A stretch of 45,070 bases of DNA from positions 1-45,070 of the forward strand of contig JBCCQQ010000052.1 in assembly GCA_039024555.1 (NCBI GenBank). Direction: 5' to 3'. Source of the stretch: Cyanobacteria bacterium P01_D01_bin.156 (GTDB lineage: Bacteria > Cyanobacteriota > Cyanobacteriia > Phormidesmidales > Phormidesmidaceae). The position numbers were made by a program, and so were the translations under genes. Each line of letters opens with the position of its first letter. The first letter of the stretch is position 1. Positions 141 through 40,385 of this stretch are shown piece by piece. The notes below the pieces were generated by a model. The model searched no databases and was not told the DNA's origin. It saw only the letters and a list, made by a program, of their open reading frames with translations.

Positions 141-335
141 GGTCAGGAACCACACGCAGCAGAGTAACCAAACCGCGACTTAAGGAAAAGACCCATGGAG
201 AGGGAGTTGTATTCTTAGCAGCCAAAATCGATAGAGGCAAACTAAGGACGGCCCCAAAGATAGTTCCCACCAGGGCCATCTCAAATGTTTCCAGGGTGGC
301 GCGACCCATACTACCTAAGCGAGCCGGATCGGCTG
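141..335 (-). pseudogene. phnE: Phosphonate ABC permease PhnE fragment, interrupted by the IS and lacking its N-terminus
   Basis: LETFEMALVGTIFGAVLSLPLSILAAKN...LLRVVPD is the PhnE first TM segment. The tail of ORF 79..309 (PGLIQCDG...) is read-through into the IS end, and an in-frame TAG lies just upstream. Confidence 0.8.
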
Positions 336-22879: not shown

Positions 22880-23581
22880 CTACTCTCTCAAAACATAGCC
22901 CACACCGCGCACGGTCTGGATCAAACGCTTTTCGCCTTCGGCCTCTAGCTTTAAGCGCAAATAGCGAATGTACACTTCAATAATGTTGGAGTCCCCCATG
23001 AAGTCATAGCCCCAGACCTTTTCTAGGATTTGATCGCGAGTCAGCACCTGGCGAGGGTGGGCAATTAGATAATCTAACAGGTCAAATTCTTTGGCGGTTA
23101 ACTCCATTCCCCGGTCGCCACGAAAGACTTCGCGGGTTTTTCGATTTAACGACAGGGTCTCAAACTGTAGGGTTTCGGCCTCCTGGGGATCGTTGCGACG
23201 CAGATGAGCTCGCACCCGGGCCAATAGTTCTTCAATGCTGAAGGGTTTGACCACATAGTCATCGGCACCGGCATCCAGTCCGGCAACCCGATCGGATACA
23301 TCATCCTTGGCGGTGAGAAAGATAATGGGCATTTGGGCGCCGGTACTGCGCAGACGACGACAGACTTCTACCCCCGCTAGACCCGGCATCATCCAGTCCA
23401 GCAGAATTAAATCAGGAACAGTATCTCGGGCAGCCATCAGCCCGGACAGGCCGTCGTTAGCAATAGCAACCTCATAGCCTTCGTAGGAAAGCTCCATTTG
23501 CACAAATTTGGCAAGTTGGGTTTCATCCTCGATAACTAAAATTTTGGCAGCGGTCTCGGTCATGATGATGGACTCCGGCAA
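22880..23581 (-). CDS. OmpR-family response regulator
   Basis: IEDE, LDWMMP and KPF receiver residues, plus winged-helix LTAKEFDLL...IQTVRGVGY. The true start may be the ATG at 23563. Confidence 0.95.
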   Translation of the reverse strand: MPESIIMTETAAKILVIEDETQLAKFVQMELSYEGYEVAIANDGLSGLMAARDTVPDLILLDWMMPGLAGVEVCRRLRSTGAQMPIIFLTAKDDVSDRVAGLDAGADDYVVKPFSIEELLARVRAHLRRNDPQEAETLQFETLSLNRKTREVFRGDRGMELTAKEFDLLDYLIAHPRQVLTRDQILEKVWGYDFMGDSNIIEVYIRYLRLKLEAEGEKRLIQTVRGVGYVLRE

Positions 23582-25366: not shown

Positions 25367-27955
25367 TTAATTTACCGCACCAATCAACGTAAAAGCAGCC
25401 CAGGCAACGGGATCTTTATACTGTTTACGGATGGCTAGCATGGCCTGACGCAATGCTTGAGCATTGTCCAATCGCTGGCGCTGACGATAAAACTCCACCA
25501 TCAGCTGAGCTGTGGCTTCGTCAGGCACCTGCCATAGGGAAACCATAACATTATCGGCCCCAGCCGCTAGAAAGGAGCGGGATAGCCCAATGACGCCGTC
25601 GCCGGTAATTTGTCCTCGCCCAGTGTCACAGGCACTCAGTACCACCAGATCTGCCTGTAGGGTCTGGTCTAAGATTTCTGCGGCAGTGAGAAAGCCGTCC
25701 TGGCTATCATCAGGGACAAACGCTAGGGACCCCTGTAGTGGATTAGCTTCATTAAAAAAGCCGTGGGTGGCCAAATGAATCAACGATGCAGTGGCGAGCT
25801 GTTGTTTGACGACGGTTTCTGTTGCCACTTTTCCAATCAAGGCATGAGTACCAAGCACATTGGCAATACTGCTGGCTTCCGTCCCGGCATGGGGAAGCGC
25901 CTGAAGATTCTCGGGCATGGGAGTAGGATTGCCGACGACTAAGGGCTGACCAGTCGCTGATTGTTCTCCACCATCAGTCAGTGCTAAAACCTGAATAGCC
26001 GGAGCACTCAAAAGGGTGTGATGTTCAATGAGATAACTGCCATCCTCTTTCTGGAGGGCTGGAAATGGCACCAGGAACAGCTGCTCTTGAGGGATAAAGA
26101 CAACTCGCTGCTGGGGATCCGTCGGCAACAGATCTTCCACGGGGGTAATCAATAGGTTGTATAGATCTTGCCACTGGGAGGGCTGCCTGAAGACGGCGGC
26201 AAAGGCAGTGACTTGGTGAACTTCAGTGATGGGAACCACCGGGTTTGGCAGCATAAAGTCTGGATGGCTGAGGGTAACAGTCCCTGCACGGGGGTCAACG
26301 GCAGTGACTTCATAGGGAGCCCAATCCAGCGGTTCTCCTTCTCGTCGGACTTGATCGCCGGGTCTCGGTAGGCCTCGACTGTTGCCCCGAATCCCGTTAC
26401 GGGTACGGCTCGTTTCCACCAGCTTGGCAATGGAGGTGCCCTTCTCCTGCAGCGGTCTGAGATCCACCTCCCGAAAATCCACCTGTCCTGTAGGCTGAAC
26501 TACCCAAATGTAGAGACGTTCTGCTGTTCCCCTCTGTTTACCTTGGAACTTAAAACCATCGTCAGGCACCAGGGTATATTCCACTAGGGTGGCCTGTTGC
26601 TCCATTGCAACAGCACGGATTTGCTTAATATCAGGTGCCTGGGTCGTCTCAGCCAAGGTCTCTGTTTGTTCGGCCACCAGTTCAACAAAGGCCCTCGCTC
26701 GCCCCCGCTCGGCCACTTCCAATGCAGCTTCGGTATTGCCTCGGGCCACCAGAATTTGTTGCAATAAGTTATAGGTCAGCACCTGGGTGTCAAAGATAGA
26801 AATTTGACTCGTATCATCTAAACCAGGTCGAAGAGATTCTAAAATATTGACCGCTTCGTACAGTTTGGCTTCAGAGGCTGCCAGCTGACCTGATTTAAAT
26901 AGGGTATGACCAAGATTATTTAACGCGACGGCAATGGTTTGAGGATCGGCAGTTGAGCGGGCATTGTTCAGGCTCTGCTGGTGATGGTTTAGCGCCCGCT
27001 CATAGTCTCCTTGATCGGCATATAGACTCCCCAAACTACCCAGGGCTACACCAACCATATCTGGCTGTTGGTTAGCCTCGGCAATGGTTAATGCCTGTTG
27101 CAGCTGGTCAATGGCTAAGGATGGCTGTCCTTGTACATAATAAGCTGCTCCGAGGTTGTTGAGAGCGTAGGTTATTCCTTGGATATCGCCCCCAGATTTG
27201 AATAGCTCTAAGCTGGTGGTGTAGTGCTCAATCGCCCGTTCATAATTGCCCAGGCGAGCGTAGGTTGCCCCCAGGTTGACATGGGCAACAGCTATTAATT
27301 GGGGATCTGCTAATTGTTGTGCCAGCGCTAAACTCTGTTGGTGTAGCTCAGCCGTCCGTTCATAATTACCCAGACCTTCATGGGCATTGGCCAGTAGCCC
27401 TAACACCTGAGCTTCATTGTTCTGGGTTGTTGGTGTTTGGTTGTTGCGAATATCGGTTAGGGCCTTTTCATAGGTTTCGATGGCGGCTAGATAATTGCCT
27501 AGGGCGTTGTAGGCAATGCCAAGGTTGGCCTGGATGCGGGCGCGTAAATCTTCCTGATTGGTAGCAACAGTTAAGGCGCGCTGGGCCAGAGGAATTACCT
27601 GACGATGCTGGCCCAATTCTAGATGTACAAAAATAAGGAGTTCTAATACTCTTTGTTCACCTGATTTATTTTGGTCTTGGTGGTACTGCTCTAGAGCCGC
27701 TTGCCAGGGTGCGATCGCAGCATCTAGCTGATGATTACGATAGTGCGCCATTCCCTGCTCAAACCAATCCTCAGCAGAGAGATCGACTGCCGTTGGCCCA
27801 GGCGGTGCAGTTGCAGACAATGCAGTCCCAAATTGTCCGCCCAGGGGGAATCCAGCAACAACCCACAGCATTACCGCCAATGCCACAGCCAGATAACGTG
27901 ACCATTTGAATCGCTGCGTTCTACAACTGCCCCAATATTTTCTCAATTGCACCAT
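25367..27955 (-). CDS. Exported TPR-CHAT (caspase-like) protease
   Basis: Signal/TM N-terminus, multiple TPRs (ALNNLG), CHAT catalytic HLATHG and VLSACDTG, and C-terminal WAAF. Confidence 0.92.
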   Translation of the reverse strand: MVQLRKYWGSCRTQRFKWSRYLAVALAVMLWVVAGFPLGGQFGTALSATAPPGPTAVDLSAEDWFEQGMAHYRNHQLDAAIAPWQAALEQYHQDQNKSGEQRVLELLIFVHLELGQHRQVIPLAQRALTVATNQEDLRARIQANLGIAYNALGNYLAAIETYEKALTDIRNNQTPTTQNNEAQVLGLLANAHEGLGNYERTAELHQQSLALAQQLADPQLIAVAHVNLGATYARLGNYERAIEHYTTSLELFKSGGDIQGITYALNNLGAAYYVQGQPSLAIDQLQQALTIAEANQQPDMVGVALGSLGSLYADQGDYERALNHHQQSLNNARSTADPQTIAVALNNLGHTLFKSGQLAASEAKLYEAVNILESLRPGLDDTSQISIFDTQVLTYNLLQQILVARGNTEAALEVAERGRARAFVELVAEQTETLAETTQAPDIKQIRAVAMEQQATLVEYTLVPDDGFKFQGKQRGTAERLYIWVVQPTGQVDFREVDLRPLQEKGTSIAKLVETSRTRNGIRGNSRGLPRPGDQVRREGEPLDWAPYEVTAVDPRAGTVTLSHPDFMLPNPVVPITEVHQVTAFAAVFRQPSQWQDLYNLLITPVEDLLPTDPQQRVVFIPQEQLFLVPFPALQKEDGSYLIEHHTLLSAPAIQVLALTDGGEQSATGQPLVVGNPTPMPENLQALPHAGTEASSIANVLGTHALIGKVATETVVKQQLATASLIHLATHGFFNEANPLQGSLAFVPDDSQDGFLTAAEILDQTLQADLVVLSACDTGRGQITGDGVIGLSRSFLAAGADNVMVSLWQVPDEATAQLMVEFYRQRQRLDNAQALRQAMLAIRKQYKDPVAWAAFTLIGAVN

Positions 27956-27966
27956 GTCAAATGTTC

Positions 27967-30900
27967 CTAGGGCTGCTCTGGCACCGCATTAATATCGTCC
28001 TCAATTTGCAAAATATCATTGGTGGCTGGCGCTGCACACTCACCAGAACCGTCCTCTGAACGACTGGCAATTAGGCTCGATGTGGCAGGTTGGCAAATGG
28101 CGTCAGTATCAACCTCTGGATCATTGTCAGCCACCAGGGTTTCTGTTTCCCCAAGAGAATCTCCCGTTACAGGGTTATCCACCTCTGGAGACACAATTAC
28201 AGGTGGATCTGGCTCAATATTTGGCGGTAAGGGACGATTCAAAAACGTAGAATAGACCTGGCCATTGTTAATATCATTGCCGACAACAATCGCACCCACG
28301 GTCCCACTAATGGCAGAGGGAATGGTCTCATATACTGTAAAGTCCCCTGAACGATATAGAGTGATTGCCGCAGTTGCATCCAGCGGATCAAACCCAGCTA
28401 AATTGTTATCGTTATCCTCCAGCCCTGAGTTAATGGTGGGTCCAATGGCAAACTCATAGTCACCTGCACCCCCGTCAATGACGACATCTTCACTGTCAGG
28501 CAAGTCCATGCCCCCATGGCGGATAGCGATGTTAGATGTTTCACCATCGCCCGAGTAAGCGATTATGCTTGTAGGCACCTCCTGATCATTAATCACTAAA
28601 ACTGTCGCTTCAGAAATTTCTAACTCAGCTCGATCAAACCCCTGACTCACCAGGTAATCAATCACCTCCGGACTGTCCTTAATGGGGATGGTACCTTCTT
28701 CCACGCCACCGATGGTGCCTAAAAAGAAACTGTCTGTCTCCCCAACAGCTCGAAATCGTTCCGCTGCATTAATATCTACTCCGCCTACTCCAGCACGAAT
28801 GCTACCCACTTCGATATCTCCTTGGGTAGAAATTAGGCTAACTTTTCCCTCCGTTGCTTCATCGGAAAGATTGGTATCAGGGTTATAGCCTTGCAAGCGT
28901 CCCGTCTGGATCTCAGAACCACGGATGTCAATCTCACCACCATCACTCATCACTGATTGCACAGTCACTGATTCGGCGGCATTAATGCTAACATCGCCAC
29001 CTCGGGTGAAGGGAGGAGCAAAGTCGTCGACATCCACTTGGGCGGTGGAAGTGTTAATATCCCCGGTGGTGATTTGTCCGGTGGCACTGAGGATAACAGG
29101 TCCCCCTTCCCCCTGGACAACCCGAGTATCAATATCCCCTACTGAAATATTTCCTATGGTGGCAGCGCTGCTGGTAAAGGTGGTGCCGCCTACGCTTTCT
29201 CCTGGCTCATTTGAAGCGTTTTGGAGAGCATTGCCTGCCCGTAAAATCAACGCTGACGAACTATTTAGTTGCGGAATATCAGGATCTGCCCCCGCCAATG
29301 TTGGATTAGGACCAACAATAGTGATATCTCCACCGCTAATACTACCTTGAGTCTCCACCTTAAGAGCTAGACCTATGTAATCACCAAAGCTGATATCTCC
29401 CGTGCTGCTAATGAGTGTATCGGTGGATGTACCACTTAGATCACCAGGGTTATCAGTCAAATCCAAGGCAAGAAAATCATTGCCAGCATTAAACGTAGCA
29501 TCAGCCACAATCACACCGTCGCTTCTTAAAGTCAAATCTCCTACTATTGTCCTTAACTCCGATCCAGGATTGTTATTGGCCTGCACTCGTAAAAGCTCTG
29601 TTCCCTGTAAAACTAGCTCGTTGCCAGCACTCATAGTCAAGGCATCATCAAGTGAATCGTTAACAAAAGTAGTGCCGTCTGCTAGCAACTCAATATCATT
29701 CGTAGCCATCCAGCTGCCGCTTTCAACGGTGATATCTTCCGGTGTCGTAATTGAGATGCTACCCCCAGCCGTAATCGTAGCGTTTCGACTGCGAATATCA
29801 TTTTGACTAGCAATTGAAATATCTCCCCCCGTATCAATCTGGCCAAATAAATTGGCAAATGAGGGCAAATCTTGAGCCGTAATCACAATACCCATGGTCG
29901 TATTAATTGACCGAAAGAAATCAATGGCGTTACCTTGAAGCGTTAAGCTCGATAACATAAAATTGTTACCCACTGCGCTATCCAGGTTAATATTTCCATC
30001 CCCAGCTATTAGCTCCAGGCTAACTAATCCTAGGGAACCATCAATACTATTAGAAAAACCACCGAATCCAATATTAATATCTCCCGGCTGTCCAACACCA
30101 GTATTAAAGGTGGCGTTAGCGGGCAACAAAATATTATCAGTTAACTCAATATCACCACCGTCAGTAAAAAGATTACCTAAGGTCAGCGTATTGGCATCAA
30201 TAATTAAGTTTCTACCGTTGGTGGCAATGGTATCAGAACCATCCATAATAAACTCGTTGCCCGCATCAAACTCAATGGTGCTATCGCCTGCCTGAAAGGT
30301 GAGTTCGTTATCGGGTAAATCATCCAGGGTAATATTGTTGCTGGCTTGAAGAATCACATTGGTATCACCGCTGAGTCCCTCTAATTCTGACTCAAAAAGA
30401 GTAACAGTGGCTCCTGGAAAATCAGTCTCTAAAATTTGTCCCAAAAGCCCACTAACATCACCCTCAAATGTCATATTAGAACTATCGCCATCGCCATCAC
30501 CAGTGCCAGCGGCAATCACGATATTGAGAGGATCTAATAATAGGGTCCCCATTTCACCAGCGGTAGCATTAGTATCCACATTGCCACGGAAAATCAGCTG
30601 ATCTTTACCAGAGATTTCTACAAACCCACCATCGCCCAATTGATCTCCACCACGGGCACTCACGCTGCCGTAGAAGCTTGTCAAACCATCAGCCCAGGCC
30701 ACGGCCAGACCACCATCCCCTGTATCTGCGCTACTGACATCCAGGTTAGACCCAGCATCGATGTAAGTAATCTGCGCATTTGGAATGGCATCATTCCCCT
30801 GGTAGCCTCCACCAACCCGGATGGTGCCCCCTTGATCTATGCCTGATGCGTCCAGGTTAGCGTTAAGAAGTGCAGTGCGATCGCCAATAACATTAATCTC

Positions 30901-31851
30901 TCCCCCTGACTGACCGCCGACATCCAAGTTACCGGCAACGGCGGTGGTACCAGCCCCATTTGGAAGAGTCACCCCCTGGAGTGAGACGGTGCCATCGGGG
31001 GCAATGGCTAGCTCACTGCTTTCGTTAATCGCGCCCCCGGTGAGTAATTCCGGTAGTGACAAGGCAGACAGGCCCTGCTCCGGGGCGAGGGGGATAAGTT
31101 CCATGGTCAACACTCCATCGGCAGCCCCTAGGGTAACCACCTGCTGTCCGTTCACGGATGCCAACGTTACCCACCCACCTGGGGCAGACACACTCCCCGT
31201 ATTCACCACGTTGCCCGCCAACAGAGTTAGGCTTTGATGCTGATCAACGGCAAGCTCTCCCAGGTTAACCACGCTGCCTGCCTGCAGAGCGCTGAACGAA
31301 AACTGGTTAGGGTCACCGGTCAACAAACCGTAGTCACTGGTTCCCACAGAATCCCACCAGCTGTCGCCAAAGCCTACACGATCCGCTGTTGTTGCCGTAA
31401 AGCTGCCGTTTAAGTCCAGCCTGGCATTTTCACCAAACAAAATTCCAGACGGATTGAGTAAAAACAGATTGGCATCGCTGTTGCTTACTTGCAAAATGCC
31501 ATCGATATAGGAGGCATTTCCCCCCTGTACTCGGCCTAGAATATTTTGCACCTGGGGGTTGGCAACAAAGTTGGCAGTCTGCTGCTCTGTTAAACCAAAC
31601 TGTTCAAAGCTGTGGAATAGGTTGCCACCATCCCCAGAGGTTTGTCCTCCAGTAATCTCAATTTGATGGCCAGTGGATGTTACAACCGTACTGGCCTCAG
31701 CCGGGGTAATGGCCTGTGCCACCAGAACATCGGGTTGAGCACCGTTGCTAAAGCGTGGTTGAGCTGAAGCAGCTGGAACAGCTACGGGGGGTAGGGCCGC
31801 GGACGGAGCATTTTCCGGAATGGTCACTGCAAGGAGGGCAACTGGCAGCAT
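27967..31851 (-). CDS. Filamentous haemagglutinin N-terminal domain (TpsA-like) exoprotein
   Basis: NLFHSFEQF, NLFLLNPSGILFG, GGFVEISG and GTLLLDP motifs, beta-helix-type repeats, and a C-terminal Cys pair. Confidence 0.9.
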   Translation of the reverse strand: MLPVALLAVTIPENAPSAALPPVAVPAASAQPRFSNGAQPDVLVAQAITPAEASTVVTSTGHQIEITGGQTSGDGGNLFHSFEQFGLTEQQTANFVANPQVQNILGRVQGGNASYIDGILQVSNSDANLFLLNPSGILFGENARLDLNGSFTATTADRVGFGDSWWDSVGTSDYGLLTGDPNQFSFSALQAGSVVNLGELAVDQHQSLTLLAGNVVNTGSVSAPGGWVTLASVNGQQVVTLGAADGVLTMELIPLAPEQGLSALSLPELLTGGAINESSELAIAPDGTVSLQGVTLPNGAGTTAVAGNLDVGGQSGGEINVIGDRTALLNANLDASGIDQGGTIRVGGGYQGNDAIPNAQITYIDAGSNLDVSSADTGDGGLAVAWADGLTSFYGSVSARGGDQLGDGGFVEISGKDQLIFRGNVDTNATAGEMGTLLLDPLNIVIAAGTGDGDGDSSNMTFEGDVSGLLGQILETDFPGATVTLFESELEGLSGDTNVILQASNNITLDDLPDNELTFQAGDSTIEFDAGNEFIMDGSDTIATNGRNLIIDANTLTLGNLFTDGGDIELTDNILLPANATFNTGVGQPGDINIGFGGFSNSIDGSLGLVSLELIAGDGNINLDSAVGNNFMLSSLTLQGNAIDFFRSINTTMGIVITAQDLPSFANLFGQIDTGGDISIASQNDIRSRNATITAGGSISITTPEDITVESGSWMATNDIELLADGTTFVNDSLDDALTMSAGNELVLQGTELLRVQANNNPGSELRTIVGDLTLRSDGVIVADATFNAGNDFLALDLTDNPGDLSGTSTDTLISSTGDISFGDYIGLALKVETQGSISGGDITIVGPNPTLAGADPDIPQLNSSSALILRAGNALQNASNEPGESVGGTTFTSSAATIGNISVGDIDTRVVQGEGGPVILSATGQITTGDINTSTAQVDVDDFAPPFTRGGDVSINAAESVTVQSVMSDGGEIDIRGSEIQTGRLQGYNPDTNLSDEATEGKVSLISTQGDIEVGSIRAGVGGVDINAAERFRAVGETDSFFLGTIGGVEEGTIPIKDSPEVIDYLVSQGFDRAELEISEATVLVINDQEVPTSIIAYSGDGETSNIAIRHGGMDLPDSEDVVIDGGAGDYEFAIGPTINSGLEDNDNNLAGFDPLDATAAITLYRSGDFTVYETIPSAISGTVGAIVVGNDINNGQVYSTFLNRPLPPNIEPDPPVIVSPEVDNPVTGDSLGETETLVADNDPEVDTDAICQPATSSLIASRSEDGSGECAAPATNDILQIEDDINAVPEQP

Positions 31852-31899: not shown

Positions 31900-32643
31900 C
31901 TATTGAGTAGAAGACCGATTTGCTGATAAACAATCAACACTTAAACAACAGTCAACTAAGGTGGCTTCCATGAGATTATTTAGCTGGACCATGGGATGGG
32001 CCAGGACCGTTTGCCATGCCTCAGTCCACTGCTCTGACTGCTGTTGTAGCAACAGGGAGTGAACCATGTCGTACCACAGACCGTTGGTGGCAAGCAGGTC
32101 AGGTTTCTCTGCATCAGGGGTATCGGCTAGAGCCGTCTGCAGCTCATCACTGGCCCTACGGCGAAAAATGATGCCATCGGCCTGGCGGCTACCTGTGTAG
32201 GTAATGTTGGCGGTGCTAAATTGTTCGCACTCTAGACTAATTTGCCAGCGGTAATATTGGTTGACCTGCAACGCTGGGGCAGTCTCCGGCAGGGTGTAAA
32301 AACTAATGCCCGGTCCATCGACCTGCTCAAAGGTAACCTGATGCAAAATCTGTTGCGATCGCTCATCCCTAAGCTCAAAGGTAAGATTTGTTACGGGGTC
32401 AGATACGTAAATACCAAAGCTAGGGCGTGCCTGCAGGGTTTCTCCCCAGTTGGTTTGGGTGGGCTGTACTGCCGTTAGGTTGCCACAGGGGCCCGTACGG
32501 CTACCGGCATCCCACGTACTGGAGGGGGCACCCCGATTCGGTGGGTTGTACTGCAGGGCCAATCCCGGCAGGGATAGCACCGTACCCATAGCGGCTACTG
32601 AGCTAATGAATGCCTTTAGAAATGAATACGATAGTCGAGACAT
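31900..32643 (-). CDS. DUF928 family exported protein
   Basis: Signal peptide, PP.RGAP...AGSR.C, YYRW, GLWYD and W..L..VQL motifs. Confidence 0.88.
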   Translation of the reverse strand: MSRLSYSFLKAFISSVAAMGTVLSLPGLALQYNPPNRGAPSSTWDAGSRTGPCGNLTAVQPTQTNWGETLQARPSFGIYVSDPVTNLTFELRDERSQQILHQVTFEQVDGPGISFYTLPETAPALQVNQYYRWQISLECEQFSTANITYTGSRQADGIIFRRRASDELQTALADTPDAEKPDLLATNGLWYDMVHSLLLQQQSEQWTEAWQTVLAHPMVQLNNLMEATLVDCCLSVDCLSANRSSTQ

Positions 32644-32696: not shown

Positions 32697-35012
32697 TCAG
32701 GAATTACCAGAGGGGCGATCTTTTCTAGTAACGCCAGGCAAAGCTACAGCCGTACCACTGCCGCTTAATAACGCCAGGGTGCCAGGCACTAGTGGCACCC
32801 ACCAGCCCATGGCAAATAGCCACCAGCTAACGCCATACAACGCCAAGGTGGTTAGACCTAAACTGAGCAGCCACAGTGGCCACGTTCGGCGTTTAACTGT
32901 TAGTCCACAGCCTATCAAAGCACCCCCAGCAATCCATAGCCAATCGGCCCAAACGGGGGTACTTTTTAACAAAGCACCGTTGTCTAGGGCCGCAGCTAAA
33001 AGATAGTTAATGGTTTGGGCATGGATATCAATGCCAGGAATCTTGGTTTGGGACCAGGCTTTAGCCCCTAGGGGCGTAACAAAATAATCGGTGGGATTCG
33101 AATCAGGGGCGCTCATTCCCATGACAACAGCGTAATTTTCCAATGTTTCCCAATTGGTTTCACCTCTTAATAGCTCAGAGAGGGTAATGCGCTGTTCTGG
33201 CTGGACACCGCCGTAGCGCAACAACAGTTGAAAGCCTCGGGCATCAATGCCCTGATAGCCGCCGCTGCCAGTTTCTAGGGGGGTAAGGGTGGCGTCCCCC
33301 AAACGCAGTAGCCGATCGCTCACGGTTTCCAACTGAATCCCATCGGCATCCAAATAGTGGAGGGTGGTCAGCATGGCCAGCGAGGTACGGCTGGTGCAGG
33401 GGTTGGTCGTATCAGGCTGGGCAAACAACAGCTGTCGCCGCAGCACACCGTCTGGATCCACCACCACATTGCTAAACCCCACCTGGGTTTCCGGTAGCTC
33501 CGGTGGTGGGGCAATTCCCCCCTGGTTACCGCCACCTTGGCCAAAACTGCACAGGGCGACCACATTATTGTCTTGAAAGGCTTCCCCTAGAAGAGTATTG
33601 GGCGCAGCCTCTGGACGAAAAATATCCAAACCAATTACCCGTGGATTATAGGGACGTAGCTGGTTGATGGCCATGGCCAGCACCTCATCCGGTAATGGAT
33701 AGCCATAGGTGTTGACATCTTCTCGTGTTGCTTCAACAACCAGTACCCGCTGGTTTACTTGGGCAGGCTGCTGTCGCATCAGCTGATCGTAGGCTGCCAG
33801 TTCTGAACGCTGCAGCACCCCGGTCCAACGCAGGATGCCGAGACTGGCGGTGACAATGGCCCCAAGGGTGAGTAACTGTTTAATGGGTAAACCACCCACC
33901 AAAGGTCTGTTGGAAGAACCACCTTGGGGCGCAACGGTTAACTGAGACCAGCGTTTGGGTAGGGATGGGTTGACTTGAAAGATAATGGGTAACCAGCTGG
34001 CACAGGGGAACTGGTCTTCGATGCCTTGTAACCGTTCTCGGGCCTGACGGGTAGACGAGTACAGCGAGCTACCCGCCCCATAGGCATCTAAAAAATATTT
34101 TAAGAAGGTTTGGGCCACCCGGTCAGGCACCGGTTCTCGCATCAACACCATTTGCGGTAGCCCGATGGGGGCCAAGACATTGGCCAGACCCAGACCATCA
34201 CAGGCATTAAAAATAGCTAACTGCAGCCCCTGACGTACCGCCTCACGTAGACCATATTTAAGCTCCTCCAGAGTGAGACTTTCCTTTGGATTAATAAAGA
34301 TTCGACCGGCACCGGCTTCGGTACGGCCATGGCCCGCAAAAAAGAGCAGATCCCAGGGTTGTTCCCACAGCTGATCCGTAATCTGTTGGCGCTGGGGTTC
34401 GACTAAAAAGGTCACCTCAGCGCCGGGAATAGCGTCCAATAGCTGACGGTCGGCGGTGACATCTATCCCACTGCTGTCCCCTAAAATCGCCAAAATTTTA
34501 ACAACGCTGGATTGTTGCCCAGGGGGAACATCCAACCGCTTTAGGGTGGGCGTTCCCAACGCAACTTCCAGTTGGGGATAGCGGTCGATCAGATCCCACA
34601 CATGCCAGGGTAGGTGTTGGAGATGAGAATTGGTGGTCCGAATAACCAAACGGACAGTATCGGTGGAATTGAGCTCTTCCCGCAGGGGGCGATCGATGGT
34701 GGAAAACGTAGGCGATAACAGCCACGCTTTGAACTGTTCCCCGAGGGCTTTAGCCGCCTGCTGACAGGACTCCACCGTATGGAGGGACCCCACATAGGTA
34801 ATCTCCAGGGGCTGAATTCGGGATGGGCTATCCATCAAGCGGTAGCTGTCCTGCCACGTTTGCAGCTGTTGCAACAGTCCTGGGTTGGGAGGTAGAGAGC
34901 CGATGGCTTCTAAATCTGGACGGGCACCCTCTGCACCAATTTCCAAAAGCACATGGAAACCGTTGTTTTCCAGATCGCCTTCAAGCTTTAGGGTGACGAG
35001 TTTCTCAGTCAT
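32697..35012 (-). CDS. CHAT-CHASE2 membrane protein (cytoplasmic caspase-like domain, extracytoplasmic CHASE2 sensor)
   Basis: KLVTLKL start, FFAGHG and IFNACDG dyad, SWLP, then a TM, CHASE2 (ELAAYDQLMR, VIGLDIFR, DPDGVLRR, PGIDIHA) and three C-terminal TMs. Confidence 0.9.
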   Translation of the reverse strand: MTEKLVTLKLEGDLENNGFHVLLEIGAEGARPDLEAIGSLPPNPGLLQQLQTWQDSYRLMDSPSRIQPLEITYVGSLHTVESCQQAAKALGEQFKAWLLSPTFSTIDRPLREELNSTDTVRLVIRTTNSHLQHLPWHVWDLIDRYPQLEVALGTPTLKRLDVPPGQQSSVVKILAILGDSSGIDVTADRQLLDAIPGAEVTFLVEPQRQQITDQLWEQPWDLLFFAGHGRTEAGAGRIFINPKESLTLEELKYGLREAVRQGLQLAIFNACDGLGLANVLAPIGLPQMVLMREPVPDRVAQTFLKYFLDAYGAGSSLYSSTRQARERLQGIEDQFPCASWLPIIFQVNPSLPKRWSQLTVAPQGGSSNRPLVGGLPIKQLLTLGAIVTASLGILRWTGVLQRSELAAYDQLMRQQPAQVNQRVLVVEATREDVNTYGYPLPDEVLAMAINQLRPYNPRVIGLDIFRPEAAPNTLLGEAFQDNNVVALCSFGQGGGNQGGIAPPPELPETQVGFSNVVVDPDGVLRRQLLFAQPDTTNPCTSRTSLAMLTTLHYLDADGIQLETVSDRLLRLGDATLTPLETGSGGYQGIDARGFQLLLRYGGVQPEQRITLSELLRGETNWETLENYAVVMGMSAPDSNPTDYFVTPLGAKAWSQTKIPGIDIHAQTINYLLAAALDNGALLKSTPVWADWLWIAGGALIGCGLTVKRRTWPLWLLSLGLTTLALYGVSWWLFAMGWWVPLVPGTLALLSGSGTAVALPGVTRKDRPSGNS

Positions 35013-35016
35013 GGCA

Positions 35017-35931
35017 TTAAATCACGAACCTTTCGGCAAAGCTGGTGTCCTGGAGGGTCAGCCGAAGGCTAAATTCTTCGCCGGGGTGACCGGTAAATTT
35101 TAGCTGAATGGCCTCTGTGGCTCGGGCTTCCGCCTGCATCACTTCTTGGTTATTGCTGTCTAAAACACCGAGCTTTAGCTGGGGCGGCAGGTACGATTCT
35201 GTCTCAGCGCCATGCACATGCACCTGAATTTCTGTTTGAGTATCCGACAGAGGCAACAGACCCACCGTCAGGGTAATCTCCTGGTTGTTTAAGCTAATGC
35301 GCTTGCTGCGAGTAATTAGGTCTTCATTGACGGCAGCAGCCTGGTTTCTAAAAGCCAGGGTCCTGGGGATGGCCATGCTATCCAACACTTGCCAACCCTC
35401 ATCAGCCAGGTTCTGTAACCAACGGCTGAGTTGAGTCATTTGTTCTCCCGCCTGTTGAAGTACGGTGGGTATCAACAACTCTGAAAGAATATCCAAGGAC
35501 TGCAGCTGATCAAGGGCTATTTGAGTCGCAGGTTGGGTAACAACGCCAAGGAGGGTGGCGGTGCGTAAACTATCATCCAGGTGCACAACAACATAGCCCA
35601 GACGATCCTGGTGCAGCTCAGGGGCGATCGCAACCTCGCTGACTTCCCCTACCACAGGCAAACACTCTAGCTGACCATAGCCTTTAACGGCTAGGGCAGC
35701 TGTTCCCAACAACATCTGCTGCACCGGATTCAGACCATCGCTGGCGGCCAGATCGGGCTCGTATCCCAAACATTCGAGATAAAAGCGAGTGGCATAGATG
35801 GCCAGGGTATTGAGATACACCTGTTTTGCTTTTTGAGGTGACGGCTGATGTTTTCGAAATTGTTCCGCCTGGTGGTGAGGCTCTAGGGAAAGGGGAACGG
35901 TAACGTTGGAAAGAGTCGAAGGGATAGTCAT
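35017..35931 (-). CDS. DUF1822 family protein (candidate anti-sigma)
   Basis: KAKQVYLNTLA, LECLPV, DRLGYVVV, LSRWLQ..GWQ, YLPP.LKL and GEEFS motifs. Start set at MTIPS, because the longer ORF overlaps the sigma gene. Confidence 0.88.
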   Translation of the reverse strand: MTIPSTLSNVTVPLSLEPHHQAEQFRKHQPSPQKAKQVYLNTLAIYATRFYLECLGYEPDLAASDGLNPVQQMLLGTAALAVKGYGQLECLPVVGEVSEVAIAPELHQDRLGYVVVHLDDSLRTATLLGVVTQPATQIALDQLQSLDILSELLIPTVLQQAGEQMTQLSRWLQNLADEGWQVLDSMAIPRTLAFRNQAAAVNEDLITRSKRISLNNQEITLTVGLLPLSDTQTEIQVHVHGAETESYLPPQLKLGVLDSNNQEVMQAEARATEAIQLKFTGHPGEEFSLRLTLQDTSFAERFVI

Positions 35932-35989: not shown

Positions 35990-36901
35990 CTACAAAAGGG
36001 TTTGAAACTGGTCGGAAAATTTGTCGCAACAGCGTTGAAAGAAACTGCTGAGGGTGGGAATCTTAATTCCCAACTGGGTGGAAATCTCTTCCCAGCTTTG
36101 GTCAGCAAATCGAGCTAGGGCAATCGCCTGAAAGCTGGCATCGGGACGTTTACGAATGTGGGTAGATTGGAACACCCCCTCTGGATCGGCGGCGATATAA
36201 TCTCGCACATCCTTGGCCAGAGAAGATTGGGGTTCCGGCTGGGACAACCGTTCAAGATCGTTGAGGTTGGGCAGTTCCTGAGTGTCGCGATCGCTAAACT
36301 GACGACGACATTCAATCACCATGCGGTCCAAGCGAAAATTGACCCAGTTCATAAACTTTTGGGCCTGCCCCCGGTTGGGGTCATAGGTGTCAATTTTCTG
36401 ACAGACGTACACCAGGGTACGGTTGACAGCTTCCTCGTAGAGTAGGGGATAAAACGAGGGGGAGAATTTTGCCCGATGGGGATGGGCCAGCCGTCCACAG
36501 GCACGAATTGCTTCCACCAGCTGCAGTAGGGCATGCTGTCGCAGACCGCTGGGGTTTGGCTGGCTTTGGGCCTCTAGGGCCAGACCCTTGAGCAACGGGT
36601 CAGTGAGGGCGGTTTGGGTGGCCTGGGTACGGAGTCCATAGCCCCAGCTGGGGTCAGGCTGCAATAGTCCTTTTTCAAAACAGTCTTGCAAAAGATCCTT
36701 CAGGGTTTGCCGGATGCGATCGCAAATGTCTTTATAGATCCCTGCCAGGGGCTGACCTCTGGGGGGACGGCCTACTTTTCGCGATCGCATCATCATATCC
36801 ACTAGCTCAGAGAACGTGTCAGCGTCCCCATCCGACTGCCCCTGAAGCATCAGAATAAGCTGCTTAAAACGCGATTCCATAGGCCAAAGTAATACCAGCA
36901 T
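35990..36901 (-). CDS. Sigma-70-like factor (cyanobacterial HetZ/ECF-like clade)
   Basis: Region-2-like YEEAV...KIDTYDPNRG..FMNWVNF, region-4 HTH SWEEIS..LGIKIPTLSSFFQR, and a GAGGAGG RBS at 36911-36917. Confidence 0.82.
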   Translation of the reverse strand: MLVLLWPMESRFKQLILMLQGQSDGDADTFSELVDMMMRSRKVGRPPRGQPLAGIYKDICDRIRQTLKDLLQDCFEKGLLQPDPSWGYGLRTQATQTALTDPLLKGLALEAQSQPNPSGLRQHALLQLVEAIRACGRLAHPHRAKFSPSFYPLLYEEAVNRTLVYVCQKIDTYDPNRGQAQKFMNWVNFRLDRMVIECRRQFSDRDTQELPNLNDLERLSQPEPQSSLAKDVRDYIAADPEGVFQSTHIRKRPDASFQAIALARFADQSWEEISTQLGIKIPTLSSFFQRCCDKFSDQFQTLL

Positions 36902-36940
36902 TCATACAAACCTCCTCAAGATTATCGATCTGTTTCCTGA

Positions 36941-36973
36941 TAACTCGTATGAATCGATCACTTTTTATGCAAA
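36941..36973 (-). promoter_or_regulatory. Shared bipartite promoter motif, copy 1 (upstream of the sigma operon)
   Basis: Minus strand: TTTGCATAAAA-AGTGATCGATTCATA-CGAGTTA. Confidence 0.7.
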
Positions 36974-37186
36974 AGTCAACAATTTAGGTGGACTCAATCT
37001 TTCATAAGAAACGAATACTTGCTTGTGCAAGGGAAACCCCAATTTGCCTAATTGACATAACGTTGATACTTCCGAAAAGAAGAAAAGCCCTGAGCGTCCC
37101 TTTTCTCAATGTCGATTCTAACCTTCCAAGTAGGGACCGTACTATTTAACCAAGCATTCACCAAAAATCTCAAAAAAAAGATCCAG

Positions 37187-37220
37187 CATTTGCATAAAAG
37201 TCAGTTTTCTTCCACGAGTA
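37187..37220 (+). promoter_or_regulatory. Shared bipartite promoter motif, copy 2 (upstream of the RTX metalloprotease)
   Basis: CATTTGCATAAAA-GTCAGTTTTCTTCCA-CGAGTA. Confidence 0.72.
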
Positions 37221-37310
37221 GCCATCGAAAGGACAACAAACCAACAACGTCCTTCTATGGTTCATCTCTTTAGGAACTAATCCCCCAACCCTTTCTGGAG
37301 ACTTTTAACA

Positions 37311-39950
37311 ATGCTTGCTAGCTACATCAAAGCACTGCTACACAAGAACGGTATTCACTGGAACAACGGTGGCAACGTCGGCGATAAAGACGATATGGGT
37401 AATGGTGCCACAGTCACCTATAACTTCTTCAGTTCCCGTCCATCTGGCTTTAGCCGCGACCACTACAAAAACTTCTCGGCCTTCTCCGCAACCCAAAAGG
37501 CTCAAATCCGCCAAGCCCTAGACCACTACGAAGATGTCGCCAATATCCAATTCCAAGAACTTAGCAGCGGTGGCACCCTGCGCTTTGGCTATGCTGACAC
37601 CTTTTTCGACTTTGATGGTGACGGAGACTTTGAACCGGCAGGGGGTCTAGCCACCCGTCCCCATTCATCTGGTGCCAGCATTGTTATCGACAAAGATGCA
37701 ACTAACTTTAGCCCAGGCTCCTGGGGCTATTTTGTGTGGCTACACGAACTAGGACACGCCGTTGGCGGTCTCAATGATGTCACCATGGGGCGTAATCCTG
37801 ACGATCAGTATGCCGCCTCCAGTGAACAACGCAACAAAGGGATGGACGGCCAAATTCTTAGCGAGTGGCAAGACAGTCGACAGTACACCGTCATGTCCTA
37901 TATTGGCCACCCCGATATGCCCGGTGTTAGACCCCGCACCCTAGGTCTGTACGATATTGCCGCCATTCAAACTCTCTATGGTGCCAACTGGAGCCACAAT
38001 GCGGGCCACAACAACTACACCTGGAGCCACAACGAAACCTTTATCGAAACCATTTGGGATGGAGGGGGCAACGATACCATTAATGCCTCTAACCAAACCC
38101 GTCGCTCCATTATCGACCTGCGGGCAGGGCGCTTCAGCTCCATTGGCTCCCTTAACGGCAGCAGCAATGCTGTCAACAATTTAGCCATTGCCTACGGAGC
38201 TACCATTGAAAATGCCTTTGGCGGCACGGGTAATGACAGAATTACCGGTAACAACGTTAGAAATATCCTGTTTGGCAACGCTGGTAACGACTTTATCAGC
38301 GGTGGCGGCGGGGATGACTTTATGGACGGCGGCACAGGTATCGATACTGTGGACTACCGTCACTGGGACGGCGGCGGTGTTTATAACTTGCAGACAGAAA
38401 TCGCCAGTTTCTCCGGTTACTACAGCGAAGAGATCCGCAACTTTGAAAATATCTACACAGGCGATGGTGCGGACATTGTTATCGGTACGAACGGTGCCAA
38501 CCGCATCTACACAGGCAAGGGCAATGACTTTATCTCGGCCCTCGGCGGCAACGACTATGTCTCTGCTGGTGCTGGCGCTGACAGCATTTACGGCGGTGCT
38601 GGTAACGACTTTATTATCGGCGGCAGCGGTGACGACTACATGAACGGTGGGTCCGGTGTCGATACCGTGGACTATCGTCACTGGGATGGTGGCGGTACCT
38701 ACAACCTACAGACAGAGGTGGCCAGCTTCTCCGGTTACTACAACGAAGACATCATCAACTTTGAAAACATCCACACTGGTGACGGTGCGGATATTGTTAT
38801 CGGTACGAACGATGCCAACCGCATCTACACCAACGATGGCAACGACTTTATCTCGGCCCTCGGCGGCAACGACTATGTCTCTGCGGGTGCTGGTGCGGAT
38901 ATTGTTTACGGTGGTGCGGGTAATGACTTTATTATCGGCGGCAGCGGTGACGACTACATGAACGGTGGGTCTGGCGTTGACACCGTGGACTATCGTCACT
39001 GGGATGGTGGCGGTACCTACAACCTACAAACAGAGGTGGCAAGTTTCTCCGGTTACTACAACGAAGACATCATCAACTTTGAAAACATCTACACAGGCGA
39101 CGGTGCGGATGTTGTTATCGGCACTAATGGGGTTAACCGCATCTACACAGGCGATGGTAATGACTTTATTTCGGCCCTGGGCGGCAACGACTACATCTCT
39201 GCGGGCGCTGACAATGACACAGTCTATGCCGGTGCTGGTGATGACATTGTCTATGCCGGGTCTGGTAATGACCGTGTCGTAGGTGGCAGCGGTGATGACT
39301 TTATGGATGGTGGTTCCGGCATCGACACCGTGGACTATCGCCACTGGAATGGTGGTGGCACCTACAACTTAACGTCTGAAGTTGCTAGCTTTGCTGGATT
39401 CTACGACGAAACTATTCGCAACTTCGAGAACATTTACACCGGTTCTGGTCTCGATAACATTGTGGGCACCTCTGGCAACAACGAAATTAATGCTGGTGCT
39501 GGGGATGACATTATCGATGCTGGTAACGGCAATGATGTCATCATCGGTGGCTCGGGTAGCGACATGATTGTCGGTGGTTTAGGTAACGATATTATCAACG
39601 GCACTAGTTATGCATACCAGGGTACAGGAGAACGTGACATCCTCACTAGCAGCAGCTATGGCGATAGTGACACCTTTGTTCTAGGTGAGAGTGGTCGCGT
39701 GTTCTACAACGACCATGGCGAAGCTGACCATGCTGTTATCCAGGACTTTGATGTTCATGATTTCTTTGGTGATGTTGCAGACAGGATTCAGCTATTAGGT
39801 AGTGCGGCCTCCTACAGTCTTTCTAATGTTTCTGTTAGCGGTGTTGCCGGAGCAGGTATTCACTTTGCTGGCGACCTGATCGGTATTGTTCAAGGGGTGA
39901 ATTCTTCTAGCTTGAACCTGGCAAGTACGAATCAGTTTACTTACGTCTAG
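37311..39950 (+). CDS. Serralysin-like (M10) RTX metalloprotease
   Basis: HELGHAVG, Met-turn YTVMSY, DIAAIQTLYG, TIWDGGGNDT, IENAFGG and many GGxGxD repeats. Confidence 0.92.
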   Translation: MLASYIKALLHKNGIHWNNGGNVGDKDDMGNGATVTYNFFSSRPSGFSRDHYKNFSAFSATQKAQIRQALDHYEDVANIQFQELSSGGTLRFGYADTFFDFDGDGDFEPAGGLATRPHSSGASIVIDKDATNFSPGSWGYFVWLHELGHAVGGLNDVTMGRNPDDQYAASSEQRNKGMDGQILSEWQDSRQYTVMSYIGHPDMPGVRPRTLGLYDIAAIQTLYGANWSHNAGHNNYTWSHNETFIETIWDGGGNDTINASNQTRRSIIDLRAGRFSSIGSLNGSSNAVNNLAIAYGATIENAFGGTGNDRITGNNVRNILFGNAGNDFISGGGGDDFMDGGTGIDTVDYRHWDGGGVYNLQTEIASFSGYYSEEIRNFENIYTGDGADIVIGTNGANRIYTGKGNDFISALGGNDYVSAGAGADSIYGGAGNDFIIGGSGDDYMNGGSGVDTVDYRHWDGGGTYNLQTEVASFSGYYNEDIINFENIHTGDGADIVIGTNDANRIYTNDGNDFISALGGNDYVSAGAGADIVYGGAGNDFIIGGSGDDYMNGGSGVDTVDYRHWDGGGTYNLQTEVASFSGYYNEDIINFENIYTGDGADVVIGTNGVNRIYTGDGNDFISALGGNDYISAGADNDTVYAGAGDDIVYAGSGNDRVVGGSGDDFMDGGSGIDTVDYRHWNGGGTYNLTSEVASFAGFYDETIRNFENIYTGSGLDNIVGTSGNNEINAGAGDDIIDAGNGNDVIIGGSGSDMIVGGLGNDIINGTSYAYQGTGERDILTSSSYGDSDTFVLGESGRVFYNDHGEADHAVIQDFDVHDFFGDVADRIQLLGSAASYSLSNVSVSGVAGAGIHFAGDLIGIVQGVNSSSLNLASTNQFTYV
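38290..39470 (+). repeat. Four internal ~318-bp (106-aa) repeats in the RTX protease
   Basis: The DYRHW anchor (GACTA(C/T)CG(T/C)CACTGG) starts at 38352, 38670, 38988 and 39333, giving spacings of 318, 318 and 345. Confidence 0.9.
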
Positions 39951-40007
39951 GTAGTCCGAACGGTGTGTTGAGGTAGGGCGGGTATCGACACAAAACGGAG
40001 GGGTTTT

Positions 40008-40098
40008 CTAGGAAAGTAGAGTTAGGAATTCGGAGTTAGGAAGTCAGAATGCCCACCCTTTCCGAATTCCGAATTCCGAATCCTGAATTCACTTCTAG
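40008..40098. repeat. STRR-like heptamer repeats in inverted arrangement
   Basis: GAGTTAG GAATTCG GAGTTAG GAAGTCA faces TTCCGAA TTCCGAA TTCCGAA TCCTGAA. Confidence 0.75.
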
Positions 40099-40179
40099 CC
40101 AAGGTTTTCGGCTTAAATTGATACCCGGCAGGGCCACTTGGATAACCGAGTGGCCTTTTCTTATGAAAAAGAAATCATT

Positions 40180-40213
40180 CATTTGCATAAAAGTGGGTTC
40201 CACCGCATGAGTA
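40180..40213 (+). promoter_or_regulatory. Shared bipartite promoter motif, copy 3 (upstream of the candidate sRNA)
   Basis: CATTTGCATAAAA-GTGGGTTCCACCGCA-TGAGTA. Confidence 0.7.
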
Positions 40214-40301
40214 TTTATTGAAAGGAGCAATCACACTGTTCTTTCACCAATAAACAAGCGTTGACTGTATCGCCGATCGGGTTTCCGGTCGGCTTTTTTT
40301 T
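40214..40301 (+). ncRNA. Candidate small RNA (or attenuated leader of the NACHT gene)
   Basis: Motif copy 3, then a 5' hairpin, a short single-stranded linker and a strong terminator; no ATG-initiated ORF inside. Confidence 0.55.
40272..40301 (+). terminator. Intrinsic terminator
   Basis: GCCGATCGG-GTTT-CCGGTCGGC followed by a T-run. Confidence 0.85.
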
Positions 40302-40385
40302 ATGTGCCTAATTTCTGGAATCACCTTAGCGCAACGTGCCATATTTGCTGGCAATGACTACACTGGATGCGAAATAAATGCACCC

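Follow-up and report, generated by a model that had tools for sequence, protein, structure and literature searches.

Two-box motif copies as predicted promoters of a divergent ECF-like sigma protein encoded with DUF1822 and CHAT-CHASE2 proteins in a cyanobacterium

Results

The gene cluster and its motif

The window analyzed in this work is a 45,070-nucleotide (nt) stretch of DNA from Cyanobacteria bacterium P01_D01_bin.156 (GenBank GCA_039024555.1, contig JBCCQQ010000052.1), and corresponds to contig C52 of an assembly of 6,618,991 bases in 149 contigs. Its minus strand carries genes for a protein resembling sigma factors of the extracytoplasmic function (ECF) type, for a DUF1822 protein and for a CHAT-CHASE2 fusion protein, whereas a serralysin-type metalloprotease with RTX repeats is encoded divergently on the plus strand (Table 1). 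A motif composed of two short boxes separated by 15 nt occurs three times in this region. The original prediction, made from the sequence of the window, took the motif to be a probable promoter for the locally encoded sigma-like protein. That prediction had the sigma-like gene begin at 36901, but alignment with homologues places the start at 36880, and this likely start is used throughout. Judged by the spacing of the genes, those encoding the DUF928, TPS-domain and TPR-CHAT proteins are possibly co-transcribed with the sigma operon.

Table 1 Features of the window discussed in the text. Positions are those of the window unless residues are given.
Feature	Position	Strand	Remarks
TPR-CHAT protein gene	25367..27955	-	Short gap, possibly same operon
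TPS-domain protein gene	27967..31851	-	Short gap, possibly same operon
DUF928 gene	31900..32643	-	Short gap, possibly same operon
CHAT (caspase-like protease)-CHASE2 sensor fusion gene, 771 aa (amino acids)	32697..35012	-	Pfam CHASE2 5.1e-49, CHAT 3e-15; putative gate
DUF1822 gene	35017..35931 (likely start)	-	Pfam 2.1e-47; predicted anti-sigma-like binding partner
Sigma-like gene	35990..36880	-	296 aa from likely start; open reading frame (303 codons) reaches 36901
Domains of sigma-like protein	residues 97-208 and 225-303		N-terminal extension of ~96 aa; sigma2-like 97-208; linker; sigma4-like 225-303
Motif copy 1	36943..36973	-	TTTGCATAAAA, 15 nt, CGAGT; predicted autoregulatory promoter of the sigma operon; start predicted near 36934
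Motif copy 2	37189..37219	+	TTTGCATAAAA, 15 nt, YGAGT; predicted promoter of the serralysin/RTX protease gene; start predicted near 37228
Conserved hairpin in 5' leader of RTX protease mRNA	37221..37262	+	GAAAGGAC, A/C-rich loop, GTCCTTC
Serralysin-type M10 metalloprotease gene with RTX calcium-binding repeats	37311..39950	+	Pfam, NCBIfam; predicted regulon member
Motif copy 3	40182..40212	+	TTTGCATAAAA, 15 nt, YGAGT; predicted promoter of short terminated unit; start predicted near 40221
Short unit after copy 3	40213..40302	+	5' hairpin plus intrinsic terminator (40272-40293, then T8)

The motif in the window and in the genome

All three copies were found exactly at the coordinates and on the strands originally given for them, and each has a 15-nt spacer ending in A, as had been claimed. 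The spacer-final A is a local trait, since in the family as a whole 43% of the sites have A there and 35% have C. Every copy is oriented towards a unit: from copy 1 it is 62 nt to the likely ATG of the sigma-like gene (36880), from copy 2 it is 91 nt to the ATG of the RTX protease gene (37311), and copy 3 faces an 85-nt terminated stretch.

A genome-wide scan, proposed as a check in the original prediction, recovered only the copies in the window. The pattern TGCATAAAA-N15-YGAGT has exactly three matches in the entire assembly, all within 3.3 kb of the sigma-like gene, and the reversed control pattern has none. Dinucleotide shuffles of the window likewise gave no match (0 of 100). When the spacer of GCATAAAA-Nk-YGAGT was varied from 8 to 23 nt in the same genome, k = 15 gave three matches and each other length gave zero to two. 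We also trained a weight matrix on 48 non-redundant sites from other genomes, with the window excluded. Upon scanning of 13.2 million positions of the genome the three window sites took the first three ranks (scores of 45.3, 39.9, and 32.3), whereas the maximum for the reversed matrix was 18.5. A sigma70-type consensus promoter is absent from both intergenic regions, and the only three hits to that consensus, a number expected by chance, fall within the RTX gene. Beyond the boxes the three copies have little in common, their spacers and flanks being otherwise unrelated, and thus they are not copies of a repeat element.

Conservation, spacing, and placement of the motif among relatives

The sigma-like gene has 307 homologues at an E value of 0.001 or better. 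All of the organism names shown among the 120 homologues listed are cyanobacterial and most of these proteins are annotated as hypothetical, some as "sigma24 family". Eighty homologue loci totaling 1.28 Mb were fetched, and both boxes were found to recur about 15 nt apart beside sigma homologues across cyanobacteria. In loci encoding homologues of 69-91% identity (L005-L018) the motif lies 70-107 nt upstream of the sigma homologue, and a second, divergent copy is frequently present 230-740 nt away. At 55-65% identity the motif is 350-1,900 nt upstream on the same strand, where it precedes an extra small gene or an RTX gene. More distant loci have first-box variants (TCGCATAAAAC, TTGCAGAAAAC, and TTGCGTAAAA) with an unchanged second box.

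The distance between the boxes is close to fixed. In the 80 loci GCATAAAA-Nk-YGAGT was found 45 times with k = 15, six times with k = 16, three times with k = 14, five times with k = 11, and never with any other k from 8 to 23, whereas the reversed control gave zero or one. The boxes remain constant while the spacers vary freely between targets. The matrix also has conserved columns that played no part in picking the sites. Ahead of the first box these are a directly adjoining T and, 8-14 nt upstream, a tract rich in A/T; behind GAGT they are an A two positions on and purines at a distance of 8-10 nt. Among the 59 sites with at most one mismatch, three fall inside open reading frames (ORFs) of at least 150 aa, compared with 74% of 16,000 random positions, and 41 face the start of such an ORF within 400 nt (12.5% at random). 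Hence the scatter without orientation to genes that would have spoken against a promoter was not seen.

These data bear on the notion that the three copies have no regulatory role, being left over from a duplicated or mobile sequence or clustered by chance. Copies 2 and 3 do share extra bases, CATT before the first box and GAAAGGA after the second, and the unit that follows copy 3 resembles a local duplication of the promoter together with a recurring terminator. However, a remnant or a chance cluster is hardly credible given spacers and flanks that are otherwise unrelated, the lack of any match in shuffled sequence, boxes that hold from one cyanobacterial genus to the next as the spacers change, and sites that avoid coding sequence and face genes.

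In 40 relative genomes there are 30 exact matches, distributed over 16 genomes with one to three in each, and four matches to the reversed control. Seventeen of the 30 lie within 2 kb of an orthologue of the sigma-like gene, and a further three are located on other contigs in front of RTX genes (L085, L094, and L095). Within the genus, 12 genomes have an orthologue of 83-91% identity and one further genome has an orthologue interrupted by a contig end; in all 13 the motif (exact or with one mismatch) is directly in front of the orthologue. No orthologue was found in any of the six genus genomes lacking an exact match (G001, G004, G011, G012, G014, and G019, which are 65-99% complete).

Two side observations concern the sites themselves. 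The spacer of the sigma-facing promoter (window 36944-36958, minus strand) keeps ATCGA(A/T)T across the homologues of 69-91% identity (L005-L018), unlike the spacers of RTX-facing sites, which drift freely, and CGATAAT recurs about 20 nt after GAGT in the sigma-facing sites (window 36918-36928, minus strand; L005-L018). A second regulator may act on the putative autoregulatory promoter. In a distant group of loci (L036, L054, L061, L066, and L081) a variant site ending in CAGAGT lies between the sigma homologue and the DUF1822 gene, at +970 to +1070 from the sigma start, and in that group the DUF1822 gene may have its own factor-dependent promoter.

Parallel variation of the first box and the predicted recognition helix

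Another check that had been proposed was whether the motif co-varies with the sigma regions. The predicted recognition helix of the sigma4-like domain (residues 281-294) reads PTLSSFFQRCC in many loci having the first box TTGCAT. In all seven loci with FFQK in place of FFQR there is no TTGCAT site and the first boxes are TC[G/A]CAT, TTACAT, TGGCAT, or TTCCAT. All three loci with FFGRTC have the box TGCAG, and three loci with SVFY have TTGCAG or TTGTAG. The first box therefore changes alongside the predicted helix, in about three events, which is suggestive, though short of proof, of a tie to the part of the sigma-like protein predicted to read the -35 box.

The motif could instead be a genuine promoter or operator read by another sigma factor or transcription factor, whose gene may lie elsewhere or within the cluster, such as the OmpR-type regulator encoded at 22880-23581, the sigma-like gene being merely one of its targets. 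Co-occurrence cannot separate the sigma-like gene from the other genes of the cluster, the sigma-like protein falls below curated sigma thresholds (see below), and its direct binding to the motif is a prediction. We nevertheless consider a different reader unlikely. A sigma factor, rather than a dimeric or tandem-repeat binder, would be expected to read two unlike boxes that keep a fixed gap of 15 (±1) nt, have a direction, and precede start codons by 40-110 nt. The first box follows the predicted helix of the sigma-like protein in its variation, the six genus genomes without an exact match have no orthologue of this protein, and the intergenic regions contain no separate sigma70-type promoter that an activator could assist.

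The sigma-like protein and its predicted DUF1822 partner

The sigma-like protein is poorly recognized by family models. It gives no Pfam hit at an E value of 0.01 or better, its score with TIGR02937 is 16.5 bits (cut-off 42.9), and that with Sigma70_r4_2 is 14.3 bits (E value of 0.033; cut-off 25.7). When 20 homologues were scanned, Sigma70_r2 was found in eight (best 1.7e-5) and Sigma70_r4_2 in 13 (best 2.3e-4), matches which are weak but in the correct order. A family-profile sequence search of solved structures gave no match at an E value of 10 or better. The paralogues of 28-41% identity also lack curated Pfam hits, and plasmid records searched with the protein contained only paralogues (32-38% identity).

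The AlphaFold 2 model has a mean confidence (pLDDT) of 84.7. Foldseek gave no match at an E value of 0.001 or better, with ECF factors in the first seven rows, and all 50 entries listed in the VIA-align comparison are sigma factors. Residues 1-96 form an added helical region and there is one short strand, at residues 252-256. In the model, then, the protein folds like ECF sigma domain 2 and probably also like domain 4. The designation of the protein as a sigma factor is upheld by fold and by context, and is not upheld by the cut-offs of the curated sigma-family hidden Markov models.

One could argue that the protein is an ordinary DNA-binding activator or repressor rather than a polymerase subunit, with a sigma2-like part that has lost core binding and an N-terminal extension put to another purpose. 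Such a role would fit its extreme sequence divergence without a curated family hit and its extra 96 N-terminal residues. It would also fit the finding that the profile of the family bears no similarity to a 409-aa protein of this genome which is a bona fide ECF factor (probability 0.2). Against this, the sigma2-like domain superposes at 2.3-2.6 Å on nearly the whole length of -10-binding sigma2 domains, the second box occupies the position of a -10 element, and no other promoter is visible. Moreover, sigma-HetZ demonstrates, in the passages of that report used here, that highly aberrant cyanobacterial ECF relatives can be true sigma factors (PMC13342950). A role as a mere DNA binder thus seems decidedly improbable, and we retain the view that the protein is probably a sigma factor.

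The complex of the sigma-like protein with DUF1822 was modeled using purpose-built alignments (A2 and A4). The interface score (ipSAE) was 0.88 and that of the best control was 0.00. A score of 0.88 is reached by 116 of 157 solved complexes and by two of 215 mismatched pairs, a calibration that is rough here because the alignments were purpose-built. The runs agree in at least 73% of the contacts and the pLDDT of the partner is at least 78. In the sigma-like protein, residues 117-168, 198-233, and 261-303 are contacted by residues 8-150 of DUF1822, so that the modeled interface spans both domains and takes in the recognition helix. The model supports binding of DUF1822 across both domains, as is the case for anti-sigma factors.

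The genome contains five DUF1822 genes, and at least two of the other four are preceded by a sigma-type gene. One of the others follows a 225-aa paralogue of the sigma-like protein (hhalign probability 98.5). None of the regions upstream of the four other DUF1822 genes scores above 5 on the matrix, and hence the motif is private to this sigma/DUF1822 pair. Note that another of these gene pairs (G000 C10:8605-9666 and C10:9732-10961; L122) consists of a DUF1822 gene following the gene for the 409-aa protein, which passes TIGR02937 at 95.8 bits and has long insertions amounting to about 140 extra residues spread over the TIGR02937 match. It is possibly a HetZ/PatU-like pair. About 90 nt before the 225-aa paralogue (start 44732, G000 C10) we noted TCCGGA, 16 nt, and TGAC, which is near the sigma-HetZ pattern TCCGGA-N16-TGnA and may be due to chance.

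Genes faced by the motif sites

A downstream ORF was present for 73 sites, and after exclusion of sigma homologues and of ORFs shorter than 100 aa, 37 ORFs were scanned. RTX repeats were found in 13 of these, four of which also have a serralysin-type metalloprotease domain. The remaining matches were to PPC, Laminin_B with PEP-CTERM, CBM_4_9 (two ORFs), Peptidase_S74, DUF1822, an ABC exporter with a C39 peptidase domain, and diaminopimelate (DAP) epimerase (two ORFs, both far from the site). Fifteen ORFs matched no family. Seven of these, plus one of 128 aa, form a set of eight ORFs of about 128-138 aa having an N-terminal hydrophobic stretch (alignment A3); six are alike and the other two are only 23-24% identical to the first. 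Sites orthologous to copy 2 face RTX genes in eight loci (L004, L008, L012, L014, L015, L085, L094, and L095).

The original prediction held that the regulon could be read from the DNA, and three units indeed carry the motif. The regulon is probably larger. In the same genome four weaker sites exceed the reversed-matrix maximum of 18.5 (C25:47921, C50:41743, C2:242410, and C46:34679, all on the minus strand). They read TTGCGTAAAA or TTGCATAAT[T/G], followed by 15 nt and YGAGT, and all four lie 38-75 nt upstream of ORFs that start with a signal-peptide-like sequence. The ORF behind the C46 site is 41% identical (E value of 3e-22) to the small secreted family of alignment A3, indicating that, from genome to genome, the motif accompanies the same gene families at unlinked locations. 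From their sequences these four sites are probably further regulon members.

The terminator of the RTX protease gene is at 40130-40157. On reading its sequence we saw near-identical internal repeats of about 300 nt in the RTX region (window 38260-39400, plus strand), a pattern that marks recent expansion of repeat blocks as judged by the sequence. The gene is followed by a run of GAATTCCGAATTCC-like short repeats (window 39990-40095, plus strand). A molybdenum cofactor (Moco) riboswitch match over these repeats (21.8 bits; threshold 36) is probably due to chance.

The leader hairpin and the unit following copy 3

The hairpin of the RTX protease leader (Table 1) has its stem kept in all six related leaders (L004, L008, L011, L013, L085, and L094), with a loop of 14-21 nt followed by GTCCTT(T)C. 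Its outer stem varies in paired fashion (GCCAT/ATGGT, GCTAC/CTAGT, and CCAC/CTGG). The hairpin may control stability or translation of the mRNA.

Copy 3 had been said to face a non-coding unit. An 85-nt terminated stretch does follow it, having a folding energy of -25 kcal/mol (z = -3.3) and a strong terminator in the terminator scan. No Rfam family was found at threshold in 36700-40500, and the sub-threshold rows (the Moco riboswitch row and Hrs13, the latter with 20.9 bits and a threshold of 52) were treated as chance. The sequence makes the unit a candidate small RNA or terminated leader that would have arisen by local duplication of the RTX promoter.

Downstream lies a gene for a NACHT STAND NTPase (40302-42560, plus strand), one of a large family of paralogues that has 10 matches in this genome. 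The matches begin near residue 28-30, and thus its true start is probably 40386 rather than the ATG directly adjoining the terminator. We rejected this gene as a conserved target of copy 3, because the orthologues closest to it (71, 66, and 64% identity) belong to G004, G012, and G019, genomes that have neither an orthologue of the sigma-like gene nor the motif.

Discussion

We put the probability that the TTGCATAAAA-N15-YGAGT copies are promoters read by the adjacent divergent ECF-like sigma protein (35990-36880, minus strand) at about three in four. The claim that the motif is the recognition sequence of this protein gains support from the conservation of the motif at homologues, its fixed spacing, the intergenic sites facing genes, its co-occurrence with the orthologue, the changes that parallel those of the helix, and the fold of the model, which is sigma2-like and probably sigma4-like.

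Several points weigh against this assignment. The case for a cognate promoter is one of comparison and models. As the core columns of the site sets were picked by the pattern itself, only the flanks, spacing, placement, and co-occurrence provide independent evidence. Moreover, the related genomes are not independent of one another, and each helix/box group is probably a single clade, such that the parallel changes reduce to the three or so events given above. Other proteins of the cluster co-occur with the motif as tightly as does the sigma-like protein and hence co-occurrence alone does not name the reader. Exact matches are present in two genomes in which the orthologue was not found, G006 (91% complete) and G013 (75% complete). 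Eight of the 30 exact matches in the relative genomes are neither within 2 kb of an orthologue, nor before an RTX gene, nor in the motif cluster of G006; two of the eight are an orthologous site of G008 and G010, which in L091 is 78 nt before the gene of a 628-aa signal-peptide protein. Twenty-two of the 80 homologue loci have no site scoring above 14 within -3000 to +2500, and about nine of these have weaker candidate sites with a 16-nt spacer. Copy 3 is without a clear product. No orthologue of the 85-nt unit was found and only its promoter and terminator pieces recur in relatives. Finally, the Pfam and TIGR02937 results for the sigma-like protein given above belong on this side of the account.

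If the motif is the promoter of the sigma-like protein, CATAAA would be the -35 box (-35 to -30), read by the C-terminal helix-turn-helix (residues 281-294), and YGAG, 16 nt downstream of CATAAA, would be the -10 box (-13 to -10). The original prediction placed the transcription start 5-8 nt downstream of YGAGT. We revise this to 8-10 nt after GAGT based on the register of the sigma-HetZ open complex, in which the start would be the ninth base after GAGT, and on the conserved purines 8-10 nt after GAGT. All three copies in the window have GAAA at positions 8-11 after GAGT, or AAA at positions 8-10 (36935-36933, 37227-37230, and 40220-40223), which would put the starts near the bases given in Table 1. 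The factor would transcribe its own operon, comprising the sigma-like, DUF1822, and CHAT-CHASE2 genes and probably those of the DUF928, TPS, and TPR-CHAT proteins, together with the divergent serralysin/RTX protease gene and the short terminated RNA. It probably also reads a few unlinked genes encoding signal-peptide proteins. We envisage that the DUF1822 protein would mask the sigma2 and sigma4 surfaces of the factor, thereby keeping it inactive, and that the membrane CHAT-CHASE2 protease would free the factor in response to an outside signal, by analogy to HetF and PatU3 and in keeping with a proposal made in 2021 (see below). Release would then give positive feedback through copy 1.

The complete picture would be a self-contained, caspase-gated sigma switch with the private code CATAAA-N16-YGAG (three to seven sites per genome) that drives itself, exported RTX proteases, small secreted proteins, and here a small RNA, and that is a sister in logic, perhaps by descent, of the sigma-HetZ/PatU/HetF system, which governs heterocyst fate, its regulon being readable in any cyanobacterial genome. 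We advance this tentatively, as something short of an even chance. The cassette that combines a sigma-like gene with DUF1822 and a caspase-like sensor is widely distributed among cyanobacteria; its prediction on paper dates from 2021, and no experiment on it was found. A short and very specific promoter code would name the output genes (exported RTX proteases and small secreted proteins) and predict the start positions of their transcripts. The motif was found in no paper in keyword searches, and the system appears from sequence to be an ECF-style autoregulated promoter of a cryptic sigma family whose cassette was already known.

Several known systems resemble this one in part. The promoters of the E. 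coli sigmaE-RseA and B. subtilis SigW-RsiW systems have an A-rich -35 box and, about 16 nt away, a -10 box that starts with CG or TG, a layout that the present motif shares. Structures of classical ECF/anti-sigma pairs (1or7 and 5wur) were matched in the structure comparisons of the sigma-like model. An architecture of sigma2 and, here probably, sigma4, a co-transcribed partner (here predicted to lie against both domains), an autoregulatory promoter, and a small regulon would be common to those pairs and the present system. The differences are that the scores of the present protein fall below curated cut-offs, that it has a 96-residue N-terminal extension, that its partner is a soluble DUF1822 protein rather than a membrane anti-sigma factor with an anti-sigma domain, and that release is presumed to involve a caspase-like protease rather than site-1 and site-2 proteases.

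In the type III-E CRISPR Craspase (TPR-CHAT) system a CHAT protease cuts Csx30, a protein that holds an RpoE-like sigma factor. The logic of a CHAT protease and a protein that holds an ECF-type sigma factor would be the same here, although CRISPR components are absent and a membrane CHASE2 domain takes the place of the sensor. Note that the NCBIfam model CAS_III-E_sigma appeared in our analysis for another protein and not for the sigma-like protein.

The nearest precedent for the gene set is the catalogue of EACC2-caspase/sigma/DUF1822 neighbourhoods of Kaur et al. 2021 (PMC8195603), in the relevant passages of which proteolysis was proposed to feed into the sigma factor. Those neighbourhoods combine the same components, namely sigma-like and DUF1822 genes and one for a caspase/CHAT protein whose C-terminal sensor varies, CHASE2 being among the sensors named. 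In our case the CHAT-CHASE2, DUF1822, and sigma-like genes are adjacent on one strand. The caspase protein of the catalogued type begins with an EACC2 alpha+beta domain; the four HMM libraries searched here returned no EACC2 model. The same passages contain no promoter, regulon, or experiment; the present work adds the motif, its targets, and the modeled contact of the sigma-like protein with DUF1822. The part of the ECF re-classification supplement (PMC7826278) that was searched contains neither DUF1822 nor PF08852.

The closest functional parallel is sigma-HetZ of Anabaena sp. PCC 7120. As described in the passages of Hu et al. (PNAS 2026, PMC13342950) drawn on here, this ECF-type factor uses a -35 box spanning -35 to -30 and, after a 16-nt gap, a -10 box spanning -13 to -10, and its inhibitor is PatU3. 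In the solved open complex the boxes are TCCGGA and TGnA, and a β-hairpin in insertion i2 unwinds the -10 element (PMC13342950). HetF, a CHAT protease, cuts PatU3 (Xing et al., PNAS 2022, PMC9457339, in the portions consulted). The supplements of PMC13342950 do not mention DUF1822.

Going by those portions of the two papers, both factors are cyanobacterial ECF-type proteins that are too divergent for easy recognition, and each has a co-transcribed inhibitor, in our case a putative one predicted from the model, that contacts sigma4 plus added regions. Both would activate the operon of their inhibitor, which is again a prediction here. If the present motif is read as CATAAA-N16-YGAG, both promoters consist of a -35 hexamer and, after a 16-nt gap, a short -10 box that begins with T/Y-G. 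A CHAT protease that cuts the inhibitor would be a further likeness, although cleavage has been shown only for HetF and PatU3, and the CHAT protein here is a different one (its match to the NCBIfam HetF model is 17 bits, with a cut-off of 1200). In contrast, sigma-HetZ reads TCCGGA and TGnA where the boxes of the present motif are CATAAA(A) and YGAG(T), and it has three insertions (i1, i2, and i3) whereas only an N-terminal extension is seen in our model. According to the same passages sigma-HetZ acts on developmental genes through a regulon of 546 promoters, whereas the targets here would be exported RTX and protease genes in single digits per genome. If the present interpretation is true, there would be a second circuit like that of sigma-HetZ having its own code and a tiny regulon, which would suggest that protease-gated cryptic sigma factors are general in cyanobacterial signaling rather than a peculiarity of heterocyst development.

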